Source: an uncultured bacterium (GTDB lineage: Bacteria; Bacillota_I; Bacilli_A; RFN20; CAG-826). From it: a stretch of DNA of 64,000 bases. Positions 1 to 7,484 of this stretch are shown here, piece by piece. The notes beneath the pieces were generated by a model. It was not told the origin of the DNA. It worked only from the letters and a program-made list of their open reading frames with translations, and did not search any database. The stretch spans positions 2,967-66,966 of the forward strand of contig CASEVI010000001.1 of assembly GCA_949291375.1 (NCBI GenBank), in the 5' to 3' direction. Made by a program: the position numbers and the translations under genes. Every line of letters starts with the position of its first letter. Position 1 is the first letter of the stretch.

Positions 1-2022
1 ATATTGAATTGAAGAAAAATTCGTTAAATCAACATTTTTAATAATATAAATGAATTCATTATCTAAAGCTGAATTTTTAATATCATCATTAATAACTTCG
101 CTAGTAGTCCCATTTGTTGTTAAAAATTTAGGATTTACTATATCTGTAATAGTATCGTCATTAATATGAATTACTTCACTTTTTCCTTTATAAACACCAT
201 GTGTTTGTTTAACCATTGAAGGAGAATTGTGATAATAAAAGTCAACTTGATTATTAATATTACCAGAAGAATCTAAACCAGTAACAAATTTAGCTTCAAG
301 AACTTTTTCGATACCGACAATAAAATACGATGAATTTTCATATTTATGATTAGCAGTACCTGTTGAAATTATTTCACAATTACATATTTGATAAAAAGCA
401 TTGCTTAAAATTTCGATATGTTTTCCACGTAATGAATTAAATGAATTTGAATTTTCAATTATGGTTTTAACATCGTTAAACCCACCAGAAAAATTAATAT
501 TACCAGAAGGGTAATTATTCAATAATGTTTTGTTAGTTAAGAAAATATATACATTGTATAAAGAATCTTCATCACCATATTTTTCAAAAAAATTATTGTT
601 ATTAAAATCGTATAATTTATGGGACCCACCTTCATAACGCCCATCACTAGTGTTATCAATAGCGGCCGCAGCACCTTCTATAATCGTAGAACCTTTACTT
701 TCTCCAAGAGTAACATTTTTAACCGACCCATATATAAATGGAACATCAATGCCATCTACATTAAGCATAATTTGTTCATCGTGATATAAAAAATTTTGTT
801 TTTTTCCGTTTATATTTAAGTCGATCGAGTCTTTGCCGCCGTTAACTGTTGTTTTGTCGTCAACCCAGCCATCATCACCACCATAATAATCGTAAGCTTT
901 TCCGCTACTAAAAATAGGAAATAATCTAATAACATTATTTTCGTCGGCATACTGATCTAAATTTCTCATTATATCGAATAAATCAATAACATCTTTACAA
1001 GTAAAAGAACCCGATTTAAGATCTTCATTATCTGCAACTATATGGACAGAAAAATTTTTACTATCATCAAAATAACCCCATGAAGCGAATGTATAATTAT
1101 AATAGGATTCGTTAGAATCAGGATAATCGTCACCCATTTCATTTTGAGGAGTTGGAATTAAATCATAAATACTTGTTGATAAAGTGTCTGTTACTGTTAA
1201 TTTTATAGGCAAATAGTTTGAACCGGCATCATCAACATTTTCCCAGTAACCAAGTCTTTTGCTTCTATCGTGTATTTTGCCATCTTCAGATTCATAACTA
1301 TAGCCAGGAACATTGTCATTATAGACTGAATCGTTATTCCACAAATCATCATCATTATCAATATAATCAAGTACTCCATCAGTCTCATTTTCATAAAACA
1401 AATCATTTATTACTGTTTGTTTATAAGAATAAGGATCTGTATTTAAACCACCAATATAATTCCGATAATAATATGATCCCCAATCATCCGATCCCCACCC
1501 ATGGTGCTCTACAGACGCAAAGTCAGATCGAATTAAAGTTAAATAAGCATTATCCCCAAAAGTATTATTATTTAATGTCTCTGAACTTTTTGCATTATAT
1601 TCGTTTTTCTCACTGGTTTTTTTTATAACATTTCCATCTTCATCAAAATTCCGCTCAACATAGCCGAAACAATCTTCAGGTAAAATAGTATCTAAAGTCA
1701 TTCTTTTATAATATATTAAATCATAAATATTTTGAGGGCGTTCTCCAGGATTTTGTACATTAGTAACTGGCTTTAAATATCTACTATATTGTTCAGTATA
1801 AAATGTAGAAGGAAAAAAATAGATTGTATATTCAGTTGAGGTATCACTACTATTAGCACTACTATCATAGTTTTCTTTAATATTATCGATTCCTCCAAAA
1901 TTAACACCTGTATCTTTTTTAACTGTTTCACTATTAAATACCCAATAAGAAAAACCAATAGTAGGTACTACTATTAATAATGCTAAAAATATTATAAAAA
2001 TAGATAATAATCTTTTTTTCAT
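1..2022 (-). CDS. Large secreted/surface protein (putative adhesin or fibre accessory subunit), >674 aa, runs off the window's left edge; not in ORF track
   Basis: ATG at 2022-2020; manual translation shows no stop down to position 1: MKKRLLSIFIIFLALLIVVPTIGFSYWVFNSETVKKDTG...; signal-peptide N-terminus; D/N/Y/G-rich body; YTFASWGY segment recalls Listeria-Bacteroides-type repeats. Confidence 0.85.
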   Translation of the reverse strand, partial: MKKRLLSIFIIFLALLIVVPTIGFSYWVFNSETVKKDTGVNFGGIDNIKENYDSSANSSDTSTEYTIYFFPSTFYTEQYSRYLKPVTNVQNPGERPQNIYDLIYYKRMTLDTILPEDCFGYVERNFDEDGNVIKKTSEKNEYNAKSSETLNNNTFGDNAYLTLIRSDFASVEHHGWGSDDWGSYYYRNYIGGLNTDPYSYKQTVINDLFYENETDGVLDYIDNDDDLWNNDSVYNDNVPGYSYESEDGKIHDRSKRLGYWENVDDAGSNYLPIKLTVTDTLSTSIYDLIPTPQNEMGDDYPDSNESYYNYTFASWGYFDDSKNFSVHIVADNEDLKSGSFTCKDVIDLFDIMRNLDQYADENNVIRLFPIFSSGKAYDYYGGDDGWVDDKTTVNGGKDSIDLNINGKKQNFLYHDEQIMLNVDGIDVPFIYGSVKNVTLGESKGSTIIEGAAAAIDNTSDGRYEGGSHKLYDFNNNNFFEKYGDEDSLYNVYIFLTNKTLLNNYPSGNINFSGGFNDVKTIIENSNSFNSLRGKHIEILSNAFYQICNCEIISTGTANHKYENSSYFIVGIEKVLEAKFVTGLDSSGNINNQVDFYYHNSPSMVKQTHGVYKGKSEVIHINDDTITDIVNPKFLTTNGTTSEVINDDIKNSALDNEFIYIIKNVDLTNFSSIQY

Positions 2023-2494
2023 TTCTTTAATTTCTTTTATATTTATAATCTTAAATATTTTAAATAAATTAATTATTTAAAATATGTATATTTTATTTTT
2101 AATAAAAATTATTATTTATTTTTTAAAAATTAAATATTTAAGATTATATATAAAATTACACTCCCTAAAATAATAAATATAATTTTTAAATAGATAAGTA
2201 ATAACAAATAATTAAATAATTATTAATCTTAAAATTATTTAATTAGTTCACTCTCTAATATTGACTAATTAAATAATTAATAGTTTTATGTTTTCAAATA
2301 ATAATCAAATAATGATTGATAGTCCTTAAAATAAGGGAAAGAAGAAATGAATTAATATATTTATTAAAATAAATATTAATTCGTTTTCTATCCCTTATTT
2401 TAATTATCTTATTTAATTATTATATTTTTATCTATCTTAAATATTAGGATATAAGATAGATTGATTTGATAGATTCATTGTTTAGATAGGTTGA

Positions 2495-3127
2495 TTAAGC
2501 ATTGACTAATTCTGCTGTAATTGTAACAGCGTTTTTATCTGCAATAGATTCAATTGCATTTTTCCAAGTTGTATATGCAGTACTTGATGTTGGTTTTCCA
2601 GTTGTTCCACTTCCAGCTGCTTGATAATCAATAAAATTATTTTCGGTTTTATCAGTTCCTAATGTTAATTCAGCAACATTAGAAGATAAAGAAACAGTTG
2701 TTGTAGCTTCATAATCACTTGTTCTTCCTGTTGCATCATTTGCAATTTTTAAATATGGTCTATAAGCCTCAGCAATTGTAATACTGAATTTAACACTATC
2801 AAAATTTGTTCCATCTGTTGCTGTACCATTTTTAGAAGCTGTTAATGTAGTAACGGCTGTATTAGTATCATTTGTAGTAGCAAAATATATACCTTTTGTT
2901 ACATCATCTTTATTGCTTGAGCCACCTTGATCTAAAACTAAAGTTAAATTGGAGTAATTTAAAGTAATAGAATAATTATTTGATGTCATATCTGTAATTG
3001 TAACACCTAAAGTATTTGTTGCTTTAGTATTAGATTCACTAAAACTCCAACTTGAAAATCCACTTCCTACTAAAACTCCGGCAGTTAAAAGTGGTAAAAC
3101 TGTCATTAATAATTTTCTTTTTAACAT
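2495..3127 (-). CDS. Secreted Thr/Ser/Ala/Asn-rich 210-aa protein, putative major fibre/pilin-like subunit with SipW-like signal peptide
   Basis: ORF track; MLKRKLLMTVLPLLTAGVLVGSGFSSWSF; strong SD (AAGGGGAG/AAGGA) just upstream; beta-rich composition; C-terminal VTITAELV strand. Function is inference. Confidence 0.8.
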   Translation of the reverse strand: MLKRKLLMTVLPLLTAGVLVGSGFSSWSFSESNTKATNTLGVTITDMTSNNYSITLNYSNLTLVLDQGGSSNKDDVTKGIYFATTNDTNTAVTTLTASKNGTATDGTNFDSVKFSITIAEAYRPYLKIANDATGRTSDYEATTTVSLSSNVAELTLGTDKTENNFIDYQAAGSGTTGKPTSSTAYTTWKNAIESIADKNAVTITAELVNA

Positions 3128-3133
3128 ATGTCC

Positions 3134-3693
3134 TTAACTCCCCTTAAGAATAATAAATTAGAAAATTTATATATAAAAAGACGACACCTATCCCAATGCC
3201 ACTTTAATTAAAGCAAAAATAAAAAAAAAAAAAATAGAACTATATTTTTTGACTATAAAGTCAATATAAAATATAGAGATAATTATCTATCTTTTTAATT
3301 GATAATATTGATTAAATTACTATTTATCTTATAAATTTATTTAAATTATGAAGATTTCTTGAATATCTTCATAATTAAAATTCTATTTATAAGTATAAAC
3401 AGTAATTATAATAAACAATAAAGACATAGTTAATAAGTAGGAAGTAGTAAATTTTATATTAAATACACCACAATATGTGCTTATTTAATACTTTTTATTT
3501 TTAAAATAATAATTAATAGTTAATAACAATAACATCTTTACTATTGCGCTTTTTTCTTATTATTAATTTAGATCTATCCCTTAATTATTTTTAATTTAGT
3601 TTAATTTAATATTTTTTTTACTTATTATTTTTTATTAATTATTAATTATTATTTTAGTTAATTATTTAATATAGTTTTCTTAAGGGGAGTTAA
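3134..3693. repeat. Perfect 17-bp inverted repeat pair (3134-3150 / 3677-3693) overlapping the RBS of the 210-aa gene
   Basis: TTAACTCCCCTTAAGAA at 3134-3150; exact reverse complement TTCTTAAGGGGAGTTAA at 3677-3693. Confidence 0.9.
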
Positions 3694-3875
3694 TAAAACT
3701 AACGTTAACCTTATAAATTAATTAAGAATATTAATGAATAAGTTTTTTTAAGTTAAAGAAAATAAAAATAACTTAAATTAATAAATAGATGAATAATAAT
3801 AGTTATTAAGTTAATTAATTACATTTAAATATTAAAAATATTAAATGTAATTAATTATAGAAGTAATAAAACGTA

Positions 3876-4010
3876 TTAATATTTCTTTACTTCGTTAAAA
3901 CTAACATTACTCTTTAAAAGTAAGAAATACCAAGCACAGAAGCTAACGCCTAAAGTTAATAAAGCGATAGCTAATATAAGAATAAATCTAGCTACTCTTC
4001 TTATTAGCAT
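3876..4010 (-). CDS. 44-aa micro-protein consisting mostly of a signal-peptide-like segment; not in ORF track
   Basis: AGAGGAAAAAGT-ATG; MLIRRVARFILILAIALLTLGVSFCAWYFLLLKSNVSFNEVKKY*; SFCAWYF matches the GFSSWSF/GFSYWVF motif of the two downstream genes. Confidence 0.7.
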   Translation of the reverse strand: MLIRRVARFILILAIALLTLGVSFCAWYFLLLKSNVSFNEVKKY

Positions 4011-4057
4011 ACTTTTTCCTCTGTTGCTTATTTATAATATTAACTATTTAAGAAGAT

Positions 4058-4446
4058 TTGTGAAGAAAGAAATTTCACATATCTTTACAAAAAAGAATAT
4101 AAAAATATAAATAAAATTTTGTGAAATTAAGTGAAAACATGATAAAAATAATGATAAAATTCTTATTTTTTCCGATTATTATCGAAAAAAATCTTCTTCA
4201 CAGAAATTCTAAATATTTTAATGAAAGTTTAAATTTTTGTCATTATTTTAACGAGTGTCGGATATTTTTAAACAATAAAAAAATAGTAATTTTTAATAAA
4301 AATTAACAAGTCGTTACAAATTTTTAATATATTTTTCAATAAATTTCACATGTTTTCACATTTTTTTAATTGACTTTATAGTTAATATTTTTTAGACAAC
4401 CCTCCTTTATATACAAGAATGCTAAAAAGAAGCGAAAATATTCACA
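4058..4446. promoter_or_regulatory. Cluster of TTTCACA-like boxes, several in 10-bp-period direct repeats (candidate OmpR-family operator sites)
   Basis: tttcaat/tttcaca/tttcaca at 4334/4344/4354; tgtgaaa/agtgaaa at 4120/4130; more copies at 4059, 4073, 4196, 4440; ttttgca/tttcaca at 6484/6494. Confidence 0.45.
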
Positions 4447-5211
4447 TTTTTTTAAAATTTTAAAGAATTTAAAGAAAGCAAATTAATTTCAATTATTATT
4501 TTGGCTTATAGAAGATTTTTGACATTGATAAGAAAAATCATCTTTGAAAACAAAGAAAAATAAAGTCATAAAAGCTAAACTTGAGATTTTAATGAGTTCT
4601 TCTTATTAATTTGTTTTCCTTTGTTTACACCGATATTTTGATACATTTGCATCGACATTTACAACGACATTAAAGATTAACAAGGTTAAAATTTTTCCTT
4701 ATAAGACACTAAAGTGCCAAACGTCCGTCACTTTAAAATTTCGACCCTTGCTAACTCGACATTTTTCGATTTTAATATATGTACGAATTTAAACCTTGTT
4801 GCTGCAGTTTTTGCACCAACCTCATTGCTATCACTTGTCGATACCAATTTATAACTTATTAATTTTTTAATCTAAACATCTATAACAATAACTACTACTC
4901 TTTCTAGTTAAAGAGAATTCAATAATAAAAAATTATATTCTTAAGGCAAAACTTTAATAAATATAATTTGTTCTTATTTAGGATAATTAAATTCTTCTTT
5001 CTTTATTTCCCTAGCACGGAGATAAGGATCATTTCTTTGACAACTATATTTTCTTTTTAATTTGACTTTTGACCTACTTCCTAAAAGTCTTATATTCTTT
5101 TATGAGGCTTTCTTAACTTTTAAAAATCAAAAATCAATAAAGTTTTTCTTTAGGAAAAGTAAAAACATTATATATTTTAGATATTCTAACTAATTTTAAA
5201 CTTGCTTAGAT

Positions 5212-5260
5212 AAAATAAAAAGCAACATTTCTTATAACACCAAGTTTTAGATATGTTGCT
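5212..5260 (-). terminator. Probable intrinsic terminator of the regulator gene
   Basis: AGCAACAT...ATGTTGCT stem (5221-5260) followed on the - strand by TTTTATTTT. Confidence 0.55.
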
Positions 5261-5264
5261 TAAT

Positions 5265-6308
5265 TTACTTATTATTTTTTACTAATTCGTTATAGATATC
5301 TCTAAATGTATCGCTTAAATTTTTATCCTGACCATTTAAATTAATAATTCTTCCAGGATTTTCAAGTTCTATAACTTCATCGTAATTTTCTTTATTTCCT
5401 AATGGATCAAAATAGTAGCCTTTTCCAAATATAATTTTAATATATTCTTTATTATTAACATTAATTTTTGCTCTAATTGTTGATAAATGTCTAGGAACAG
5501 ATGTTCTTTCACTCAAAGATGGTTCTTTCTATAATCTATCATAAATTTCATGAGCACTAAATACTCTATTTGGATTAGAAGCTAATAAGAAGAGAATCTT
5601 AAATTGAATTGGAGTAAATTTAGTTTTCTTATTATTAACTTTGACACTCTTTTTAACATTATTAATTTCAAGATCACTTGTTTTAATAATTTCTTTAACG
5701 ATTAATTTTAATCTTAATCTTATTTTAAGTTCATTGAGGAATGTTAAATATTCTTTAGTAAATATTGCTTCAACATTTTTATGTAAATTAGAATCGTCAT
5801 TAAAATCTTTATAATCAATATTTTCTAAATAAGAATAGTTAAAGTTATCAATGACAACTTTAATATAATTAGACATATAAATAAAATCAATAAATATATT
5901 ATCGTCTGAGAAAAGTTCAACAAATTTAGAATTGCCTTCTTTATTAAATAATTCATCATAAATTACAAGTTTATTAATTTCTTTAAACATGTTAACGATT
6001 TCTAAACAATCTTTATCGTTTAAAATATTTTTATAGAATGTTAAAGAAAGTAAAACTATATCGATTCTTTGATAGGTTGGATTATTTTTATCTGTTTCCA
6101 TCTCTTTTTTTAAAACTGTTAAAGCTTTATATCGAGTAGAAACTAAAAGTAAATTGAATTCGTTTTCTAAAAAGAGTGACAAATGAAAAAGAAAGGTTAA
6201 AGATTCATCTAATACTAAAACCTTTGGACGATATGATTTACTAATTGATAGTGGGAAATTGTTCCTTTTTTCTTTTTTTAATACTTCATTTTTCACATTC
6301 TTTTCCAT
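5265..6308 (-). pseudogene. OmpR/PhoB-family winged-helix regulator with degenerate receiver domain, interrupted by one in-frame TAG (5531-5529)
   Basis: The 259-aa and 83-aa ORFs are in the same frame: ...FTPIQFKILFLLASNPNRVFSAHEIYDRL*KEPSLSERTSVPRHLSTIRAKI...YIKIIFGKGYYF is a complete OmpR wHTH; receiver KVLVLDE...IDIVLLSL has Ser at the phospho-Asp position. Confidence 0.8.
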
Positions 6309-6656
6309 AAATTTTAATCTAACAACTTATAACGACGTGTTTTTAAAGAAAAGATTGATATTTGTAATTTTAATTTAAAAAGAGAATTGCCATATATAAA
6401 TTATTACTTTTTAAATCCTTAAAATATTCTCTTTTCTTACTTTTATAATTAAATTGACAAATAATTAAAGATATTAGGGTTATTTTTGCAAATTTTCACA
6501 CTTATTTATGAAAAAATCACCAAAAATTACTATTTTCATAGTTTTTTTGGCTTACTTTTAATAAATATTTATTACCTTTATTGATTTTATTATAAGATAG
6601 ATTTTTAAAAAATAAAGTAGAAATTTTTACAAATTTTCATCTTTTAAACTTAATTT

Positions 6657-7484
6657 TTATTTATAAAATACTTTATTTAAATATAATCCTTTAGCATCTA
6701 CTTGATAATTTATTATCTTTCTATTTTTTATATTATTTAAATAATTAACTATTTCTTCTTTACTTATTTTATTTTCATTATAGGCTAAAAAAGTTCCGAT
6801 TATTTTTCTAATTTCATAGCGCATAAATCCATCACCAATAAATGTTATTTTTATATATTTATTACTTATTTTTGATATTTTTATATTAAAAATAGTTCTT
6901 ATAAAGTTATCTTCATCTTCTTTTTTAGATGTAAAATTAATAAAATTATGTTTTCCAATAAATTCTTTAGCTATATCATTTAATTTATTTATATCAAGAC
7001 TTTTATTATAAAAAAGTTCATAGTTTCTTTTTAATGGATCATATTCTTTTATATTAATAAGATAAAAATATTCTTTTTTTAAGGAAGAAAAACGTGAAGA
7101 AAAAGATAAAGAAACTTTACTTATTTTTTTTATATAAATATCGGATGGTAAAAGTTTATTCATTTTATATTTAAAAAGTGATAAATCTTCAATTTTTTTA
7201 ATTGTAAAAAAGTTTGCAACTTGATTTAAAGCATGTACTCCTTTATCAGTTCTTCCACTACTATAAATTTTAGTCTCTTTTTGAAAGGTGATAATTTTAT
7301 TTAAAACTTTTTCAATTTCCTCTTGAACACTTCTTTCATTTCTTTGTTTTTGATAACCAAAAAAAGAGGTTCCATCATAAGAAAAAATAATTTTATAGTT
7401 ATAATTACCTAACTTTTCTTGAATTTCTTTAATTTTTATTTTTGTTTCTTCATTTCTTATATGCATATATAAATATTTTATCAA
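6657..7484 (-). CDS. truA: tRNA pseudouridine(38-40) synthase
   Basis: YDGTSFFGYQKQ, SSGRTDKGVHA, GDGFMRYEIR motifs; follows the ecf genes as usual in Bacillota. Confidence 0.95.
   Translation of the reverse strand: MIKYLYMHIRNEETKIKIKEIQEKLGNYNYKIIFSYDGTSFFGYQKQRNERSVQEEIEKVLNKIITFQKETKIYSSGRTDKGVHALNQVANFFTIKKIEDLSLFKYKMNKLLPSDIYIKKISKVSLSFSSRFSSLKKEYFYLINIKEYDPLKRNYELFYNKSLDINKLNDIAKEFIGKHNFINFTSKKEDEDNFIRTIFNIKISKISNKYIKITFIGDGFMRYEIRKIIGTFLAYNENKISKEEIVNYLNNIKNRKIINYQVDAKGLYLNKVFYK

Follow-up and report, generated by a model that had tools for sequence, protein, structure and literature searches.

An exact inverted repeat over the ribosome-binding site of a putative SipW/TasA-like fibre operon: invertible switch, RNA lock or neutral copy?

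How does a 17-nt ribosome-binding patch ahead of a bacterial surface-protein gene come to have an exact, inverted copy of itself half a kilobase upstream, and does the pair do anything? The question arises in a 64,000-nt stretch of DNA (hereafter the window; positions 2,967 to 66,966 of contig CASEVI010000001.1, assembly GCA_949291375.1) from an uncultured bacterium placed by GTDB in Bacillota_I; Bacilli_A; RFN20; CAG-826. A preliminary description of the window had singled out the perfect 17-bp inverted repeat and had offered two accounts of it: that the segment between the arms is a phase-variation element flipped by a recombinase acting in trans, or that the mRNA leader of the adjoining 210-aa gene folds so that the distal arm hides the Shine-Dalgarno (SD) sequence in the proximal one. 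We tentatively favour a different answer, the likeliest single one among those weighed here if not one that we would call probable outright: the repeat would be static and lineage-specific, its sole predictable action would be to block the SD sequence on RNA initiated farther upstream, and it may be neutral.

A unique 17-nt inverted repeat over a ribosome-binding site

The left, gene-proximal arm occupies positions 3134-3150 and reads TTAACTCCCCTTAAGAA on the plus strand; its exact reverse complement, the right or distal arm, stands at 3677-3693, 526 bp away. As DNA features the arms have no strand. Read on the minus strand, the strand of the gene, the left arm is TTCTTAAGGGGAGTTAA and carries the SD core GGGGAG (3143-3138), 10 nt ahead of the ATG at 3127, and the minus-strand RNA of the right arm reads as an anti-SD sequence (..CUCCCC..). 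On the plus strand, no start codon follows the right arm. The preliminary description was correct about the repeat, its spacing and its inclusion of the SD sequence of the 210-aa gene, and also in remarking that the six G/C of the repeat stand in nearly all-AT surroundings, the local G+C being 0.14.

The repeat was set against the whole genome assembly (labelled G000; 12 contigs, 1,288,206 bases, 26% G+C, 96.7% complete, standard genetic code), in which the window lies on the 488-kb contig C1. With up to two mismatches allowed, the 17-mer occurs genome-wide only as these two copies. The genome contains 279 maximal exact inverted repeats of at least 14 nt at 50-2000 bp spacing. At that spacing, exact 17-nt inverted repeats with at least six G/C were found in 0 of 10 block-shuffled genomes, and the mean for five G/C was 0.1, which puts the repeat beyond chance. 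The other real G/C-bearing exact inverted repeats belong to collagen-like lipoprotein paralogs of contig C2 that are transcribed divergently, or are weaker and intragenic, and a genome-wide family of similar switches was rejected on these grounds. A repeat-finding tool lengthens the arms to 34 nt at 85%, a lengthening that is no better than chance: the inner flanks reach a score of 23, where shuffles give 24.4 ± 2.8 (368 of 500 do as well), and the outer flanks one of 14, where shuffles give 13.3 ± 1.8 (200 of 500). The repeat is therefore 17 nt long, with sharp edges. Beyond this genome, the 26-mer at 3125-3150 had no match in either metagenome contigs or genome contigs; the 17-mer alone had 34 single-copy matches in metagenome contigs, none of them related to the window by blastn.

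Relatives of the locus, found with the peptidase gene of the operon that the 210-aa gene opens, come from gut metagenome-assembled genomes, including Candidatus Onthovivens sp., "uncultured Mollicutes bacterium" and "uncultured Bacilli bacterium". Twelve related loci (13 with the window) were compared; 11 of them have enough upstream sequence for the SD test, and one has just 156 nt. None of the 12 has a repeat involving the SD sequence, the longest inverted match of the SD region in the 11 relatives being 9-11 nt with at most two, and mostly zero or one, G/C. Nor does any of the 12 have G/C-bearing inverted repeats around the promoter. A different exact inverted repeat, of 20 nt with a spacer of 96 bp, is common to two of the relatives, G006 and G060, where it stands 1.2-1.3 kb ahead of the subunit gene (L019, 2053-2188; L023, reverse-complemented, 2496-2631); it is unrelated to the ribosome site.

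The two closest operon-bearing species (G008 and G062; 44-45% identity in the 907-aa protein of the operon) align colinearly, and in the same orientation, with window positions 3038-3487. This alignment takes in the left arm and the gene-proximal 340 bp of the AT-rich, 526-bp interior (3151..3676, no strand). The right arm falls in 3487-5022, a stretch that has no colinear counterpart in either species. Since orthology with the two species covers the left arm and the 340 bp beside it, and the right arm lies in sequence that they lack, the left arm is the ancestral one. The distal arm thus sits in decaying, lineage-specific DNA.

An exact, unique and sharp-edged 17-mer without similarity in its flanks argues for a copied patch rather than a decayed duplication, and the sharp edges together with perfect Watson-Crick identity point to a copy event at the level of DNA. 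The 17-nt ribosome-binding patch would have been copied by a short event, such as a template switch, into the decayed remnant of an upstream paralog. Such a paralog has left a remnant, a minus-strand open reading frame of 44 aa (3876..4010), in which only the signal peptide of a paralogous subunit survives (LGVSFCAWYF; tblastn E 1.4e-4). Two other origins were considered and rejected. A miniature transposon, with terminal repeats of 13-17 bp and a duplicated TTAA target, does not agree with the orthology of the left arm and its adjoining 340 bp in relatives, and no other copies exist. A decayed, divergently oriented paralog that left the right arm as its ribosome-binding site would be expected to show flank similarity, of which there is none; in addition, tblastn with 11 subunit homologs found none on the plus strand of 3128-5264, the sole match being the minus-strand 44-aa remnant.

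Predicted promoter, leader and RNA pairing

Whether the distal arm can reach the SD sequence on one RNA depends on where that RNA begins. A plain consensus scan for promoters and terminators lacks power here, with 36 promoter-like sites found where 33.4 are expected. The alignment of the three species contains two conserved blocks, a palindrome TTGACTTTATAGTCAA at 3249-3264 and a promoter block at 3196-3168. The latter is a consensus-level match on the minus strand, with a -35 TTGGGA (3196-3191), a 17-nt spacer and a -10 TATATA (3173-3168). At the same position, three further relatives (G006, G060 and G066) have TTGCGG, a run of 8-10 G and a -10 box located 40-66 nt ahead of the ATG; G010 is arranged alike, except that its G-run is interrupted. 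From the conserved block and the poly-G promoters of the relatives, the promoter was placed at 3196-3168, with a start at about 3161. We infer that the normal mRNA starts there and has a leader of about 34 nt, which would not contain the distal arm.

Upstream of this promoter on the minus strand, a hairpin of 15 pairs (3276-3240; -11.4 kcal/mol, z -3.0) includes the conserved palindrome and is followed by UUCUA and U14. The U14 is encoded by a poly-T14 tract at 3234-3221 (A14 on the plus strand), 94 nt ahead of the ATG, and hairpin and U-run together look like an intrinsic terminator for minus-strand RNA. The hairpin at 3344-3355/3365-3376 that the preliminary description had pointed out is real, and is the centre of a 108-nt palindrome (3308..3415, no strand) that is 82% self-complementary.

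In the minimum-energy fold of minus-strand RNA 3720-3100 the two arms are paired with each other, and the fold of 3100-3720 is better than those of all 20 shuffles (z -5.4). The duplex between the arms comprises 17 of 17 pairs and is worth -25.4 kcal/mol. For RNAs with 5' ends at 3720, 3875 or 4010, the pair probability of the arms is 0.62-1.0, with 13 of the 17 pairs at 1.0, and the SD sequence is never free; for 5' ends at 3230-3660, it is partly paired by local partners and partly free. By computed folding, pairing is physically certain when the distal arm is on the same RNA, or on another RNA nearby. The leader model of the preliminary description accordingly stands insofar as the arms pair on one RNA. 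Its own-leader form is disfavoured, as the predicted promoter gives a leader of about 34 nt without the distal arm: the start near 3161, predicted from relatives rather than mapped as a 5' end, lies downstream of 3677, which is where the preliminary description itself had said that a start would speak against the model. The model survives only for RNAs begun farther upstream.

We infer that such upstream transcripts carrying the distal arm exist. A candidate source is a minus-strand module at 4400..4470 that resembles a promoter and ribosome site and contains an orphan SD sequence AAAGGAGGG (4408-4400). It is repeated at five other loci of the genome (60-70 nt, 82-89% identity), and at two of these an ATG follows 5-6 nt past GGAGG. 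In the reading that we favour, segment 3151-3676 would not flip, and the operon's own promoter would produce a translatable mRNA with the short leader. A read-through RNA begun upstream of 3693 would carry the anti-SD sequence and, in cis, lock the SD sequence in the 17-bp helix; in trans, an upstream transcript ending at the hairpin and U14 could pair with the operon mRNA. Stray upstream transcription would then yield no fibre subunit, and the OFF state of a promoter under poly-T14 control would be kept tight.

Orientation of the segment and competing explanations

The preliminary description had proposed to look for both orientations of the segment, and this was done on contigs. The search for sequencing runs returned eight DNA rows from two studies and no RNA rows, and the four best runs (X1-X4), all kept as contigs, were compared with the window. 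Contigs spanning both arms were obtained from two of the four: one from X2, covering 3047-4500 at depth 180.6 with 19 other letters and five gaps, and one from X4, covering 3047-4449 at depth 23.5 with 12 other letters and four gaps. Both have the arms in the orientation of the window; contigs drop rare variants, so that a minority orientation is possible. The arms are untouched by any of the 24 substitution rows or six indel rows from X1-X4. The three joints listed are skips with sides of 21-22 nt, and none of them changes strand. Among the pieces listed, X1, which is possibly the source sample, and X3 have only 20-32-nt pieces on this stretch. In the X2 and X4 strains, the 44-aa remnant is shortened to 29 aa.

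Recombinases were sought in the genome as well. The preliminary description had noted no intact invertase in the window, and the same is true of the whole 488-kb contig C1, on which no recombinase was found. No serine recombinase was found in the 96.7%-complete genome. Five tyrosine recombinases are encoded on other contigs, two of about 300 aa, which we label Xer-sized, and three amid phage- or element-like genes; none of the five could be connected with the repeat.

If the segment were invertible, a recombinase encoded elsewhere would flip 3151-3676; the assembled orientation, in which the predicted promoter faces the operon, would be ON and the flipped one OFF, and the SD sequence, being inside the repeat, would stay ahead of the gene in both states. 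The anatomy fits this: exact and unique 17-bp inverted repeats, matched in none of the shuffled genomes, bracket 526 bp of non-coding DNA, the predicted promoter is aimed at the gene from a place just within the left arm, the gene, whose mature part varies between strains, opens a surface-fibre operon, and the genome encodes tyrosine recombinases. We nevertheless consider inversion unlikely, although it is the most serious of the alternatives. Only the window's orientation was seen, and it is the ancestral one; no joint changes strand; the contig is devoid of recombinases, and those elsewhere are either Xer-sized or in phage- or element-like surroundings; the genome has no second pair of similar repeats; and none of the related loci has repeats around its promoter. 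The operon family also already possesses another phase-variation device in its homopolymer tracts, and PMC11602134 notes numerous promoters that have inverted repeats on both sides and yet do not invert. The invertible element of the preliminary description is thus left with its anatomy and otherwise unsupported, though not refuted. An own-leader riboregulator, in which the normal mRNA would begin upstream of 3693 and a leader of at least 560 nt would hide the SD sequence until a signal opens it, draws on the same fold: the arms pair with probabilities of about 1, and the internal hairpins bring them together. We give it little credence. The conserved promoter implies the short leader, a terminator-like hairpin and U14 stand between the arms, a perfect 17-bp helix of this stability has no obvious way of opening, and the distal arm, present in none of the 12 relatives, is in lineage-specific sequence. 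The z-score is no sign of RNA function either, as palindromic DNA folds equally well on both strands. Least probable of those named here, in our estimation, is a pair of protein-binding sites, in which the arms would be operators of one regulator, one of them over the ribosome-binding site, and the DNA would loop over the 526 bp. The 17-mer does have TTAAC and TTAAG one helical turn apart and a palindrome CTTAAG, and candidate binders would be the OmpR-type protein encoded upstream, whose ortholog gene in the related genome G064 directly adjoins the subunit gene, or a factor binding the conserved palindrome. However, in this genome an in-frame TAG interrupts the regulator gene, the site has no third copy anywhere in the genome and occurs in no relative, and TTAA is common in DNA of 14% G+C. 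The probability left over by these readings and by the one that we favour belongs to other explanations.

Several points weigh against the static, SD-blocking repeat that we favour. The start of transcription, the RNAs from upstream and the terminator are all predicted from sequence, and the hairpin and U14 at 3276-3221 may halt upstream RNA before it reaches the SD sequence, which would make occlusion in cis rare. All 17 pairs are Watson-Crick, free of G-U pairs and mismatches, which suggests a recent copy made in DNA rather than an RNA helix shaped by selection. As none of the related loci has an SD-complementary repeat, comparison lends no support to a function. Divergence among the three strains is only 1.1-1.7% in this region, and about 0.9 changes would be expected in the 34 nt of the arms over both strains, so the unchanged arms in X2 and X4 carry no weight. 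A minority of molecules in the inverted orientation would be invisible in contigs. An RNA function predicts the involvement of the SD sequence directly, and inversion predicts the promoter-inside anatomy; neither has comparative or direct support.

If the repeat is static, the copy is more probably a neutral by-product than one kept by selection, though the margin is modest. A neutral origin is not far-fetched: the copy would have landed in junk DNA, and the SD sequence is among the few G/C-bearing patches nearby. That the repeat is functional in one way or another strikes us as somewhat less likely than not. Its arms could be the crossover sites of an invertible promoter, with the SD sequence inside the repeats, superimposed on homopolymer control, which would make a two-layer phase switch on a SipW/TasA-like fibre in one of the uncultured, Mollicutes-like gut Bacilli. 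Alternatively, the pair could be a selected, 526-nt anti-SD "insulator" that would silence every transcript begun upstream and so hold the phase-variable promoter firmly OFF, by analogy with the way in which insertion sequences protect their transposase genes, here for a cellular surface operon.

The putative fibre operon, its homopolymer tracts and known systems

The 210-aa gene (2495..3127, minus strand) encodes a protein with a signal peptide of the SipW-cognate type (GSGFSSWSF) and a beta-sandwich body, and is followed on the minus strand by genes for proteins of 907 aa, 344 aa (signal peptidase-like) and 232 aa. The three non-peptidase proteins have in common a signal helix followed by GF(S/A)xWxF. 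Among the subunit homologs, G-x-G-F-S-x-W-x-F after the signal helix is invariant in 11 of 11 aligned, and the mature part is just 21-48% identical. The 344-aa protein matches NF046067 SipW (E 2e-13, 50.4 bits, below the curated cut-off of 190) and TIGR02228 (50.3 bits, just under the curated cut-off of 51.85). The closest ESM Atlas cluster for the subunit is "putative SipW-cognate class signal peptide" (score 0.96). The model of the 210-aa subunit (pLDDT 71.9) is a beta sandwich with generic beta-sandwich matches only (best Z 5.4) and no PDB match at E ≤ 0.001 in the fold search. On this basis the gene appears to head a SipW/TasA-like fibre operon with a role in a surface structure. Like TasA/SipW of the Bacillus subtilis biofilm fibre and the camelysin family, the operon has a SipW-like signal peptidase gene in the company of signal peptides of the SipW-cognate type; unlike in those systems, its subunits have no Pfam or NCBIfam match and are related by fold only to generic beta sandwiches.

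The contigs from X2 and X4 match the window upstream from 3047 and diverge from 3047 into the gene, right after the GSGFSSW codons (region 2300-3046 compared); their loose-end letters past 3047 stay in frame by our reading. These strains therefore carry different mature subunits behind a shared signal peptide and upstream region.

Farther upstream, the gene of the OmpR-type winged-helix regulator (5265..6308, minus strand) is split by an in-frame TAG (5529-5531) into open reading frames of 259 and 83 aa. The TAG falls where the G064 ortholog has Phe, and the window gene is either a pseudogene or read through; the G064 ortholog, which directly adjoins the subunit gene, has a G10 run near its 3' end. 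Between the regulator gene and the repeat, a 250-nt non-coding element (4929-5178; in a wider definition 4710-5179) is 91% identical to C2:82507-82760 and 89% identical to C8:1643-1826, and has a syntenic counterpart in G008 with about 80% conservation. A 31-nt core of the element, containing TTGACA (5030-5060), occurs at two more loci, on C2 and C6, one exact and one at 94%. A hairpin at about 5220-5258 follows the element, which may be a small RNA gene or a promoter cassette and has no Rfam match; over 1800-6800, the sole Rfam match at E ≤ 1 was a chance miRNA outside the region.

The homopolymer tracts offer another candidate for phase variation. The genome has just three A/T runs of 10 or more (14, 16 and 14 nt), none of 10-13 nt and five of 9 nt. 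The three long runs, at 3221-3234 in the window, C2:108566-108581 and C2:117889-117902, are each located 85-94 nt ahead of a surface-protein gene, with poly-T on the coding strand. Among the 13 operon loci, including the window, three have poly-G8-10 in the promoter spacer (L019, L020 and L023), one has G10 in the regulator gene, one has T8 between the SD sequence and the ATG, and the window has T14. It is likely, judging from this distribution, that the tracts form slipped-strand phase-variable promoters of classical design, and the poly-T14 at 3221-3234 seems a likelier phase-variation device than the inverted repeat. The read comparison skipped 3206-3247 as a repeat, contigs from X1 seem to be cut there, and one gap row of X4 was dropped.

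Other parts of the genome have tracts and leader structures of their own. Three G/C homopolymers (C9, G8 and C10) are found within 2 kb at C3:23096-25010, a C10 run at C2:227447 and a C8 run at C4:91879, all possible contingency loci. Each of the collagen-like lipoprotein genes at C2:83215, 97416, 98188, 108481, 108998 and 117804 has a palindrome or hairpin in its leader, 35-55 nt upstream. The sequences of these palindromes vary from one gene to the next and are unlike the 17-mer, so that it is the structure that is kept and not the sequence.

Should the repeat act, it would give a small genome a cheap means of tightening the on-off switching of a surface fibre or adding a second layer to it; a fibre so switched would be exposed to the host immune system and to phages. 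A neutral repeat would instead caution against inverton calls made from sequence only, for which a perfect and statistically solid repeat around a promoter beside a surface operon would be insufficient. Whatever the repeat does, homopolymer tracts at the fibre-operon promoter in several species of the genus make phase variation testable in metagenomic reads.

Among known systems, the invertible promoters (Escherichia coli fimS; Clostridioides difficile flgB and cwpV, via RecV; Bacteroides invertons) resemble this locus in their short inverted repeats, a few hundred bp of non-coding DNA with a promoter inside, and an adjoining surface operon, and in these systems the recombinase need not be adjacent (PMC5903667; PMC5386303; PMC7446863). 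Unlike in those systems, a single orientation was seen here, with no nearby recombinase, no sister sites and no conservation in relatives, and the repeat covers the SD sequence.

In the vpma genes of Mycoplasma agalactiae and mba/UU376 of Ureaplasma, the recombination sites are found in the 5' untranslated region. These are surface-antigen switches of Mollicutes, that of vpma working with Xer1 (PMC2268961; PMC3047005). The likeness lies in the host, one of the reduced-genome, Mollicutes-like Bacilli, and in a site that directly precedes the start of a gene for a variable surface protein. Those switches require a partner gene of opposite orientation beyond the second site, and have an adjacent Xer-like recombinase; at our locus there is no coding sequence to the right of the distal arm and no recombinase nearby.

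Davis, Simons and Kleckner reportedly described in 1985 a "fold-back inhibition" in IS10 that occludes only transcripts begun outside the element. At the left end of IS200, an inverted repeat gives an RNA stem that hides the SD sequence, together with a terminator against impinging transcription (PMC4513863). As is predicted for our locus, a DNA inverted repeat becomes an RNA stem over the SD sequence and is combined with a terminator. The stems of IS200 and IS10 are local, with arms tens of nt apart, and guard a transposase gene; here the distance is 526 nt, the gene belongs to a cellular fibre operon and the function is putative.

In Mycoplasma hyorhinis, the vlp genes have phase-variable promoters with a poly-A homopolymer tract. 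The Neisseria repeats are a further case of slipped-strand phase variation (PMC5084427). Unlike in homopolymer promoters of this kind, the T14 here is upstream of the -35 and not in the spacer, and what is compared is the 3221-3234 tract rather than the inverted repeat. The resemblance is that the T14 stands beside the promoter, and that in three relatives the spacer of the same promoter contains poly-G8-10.

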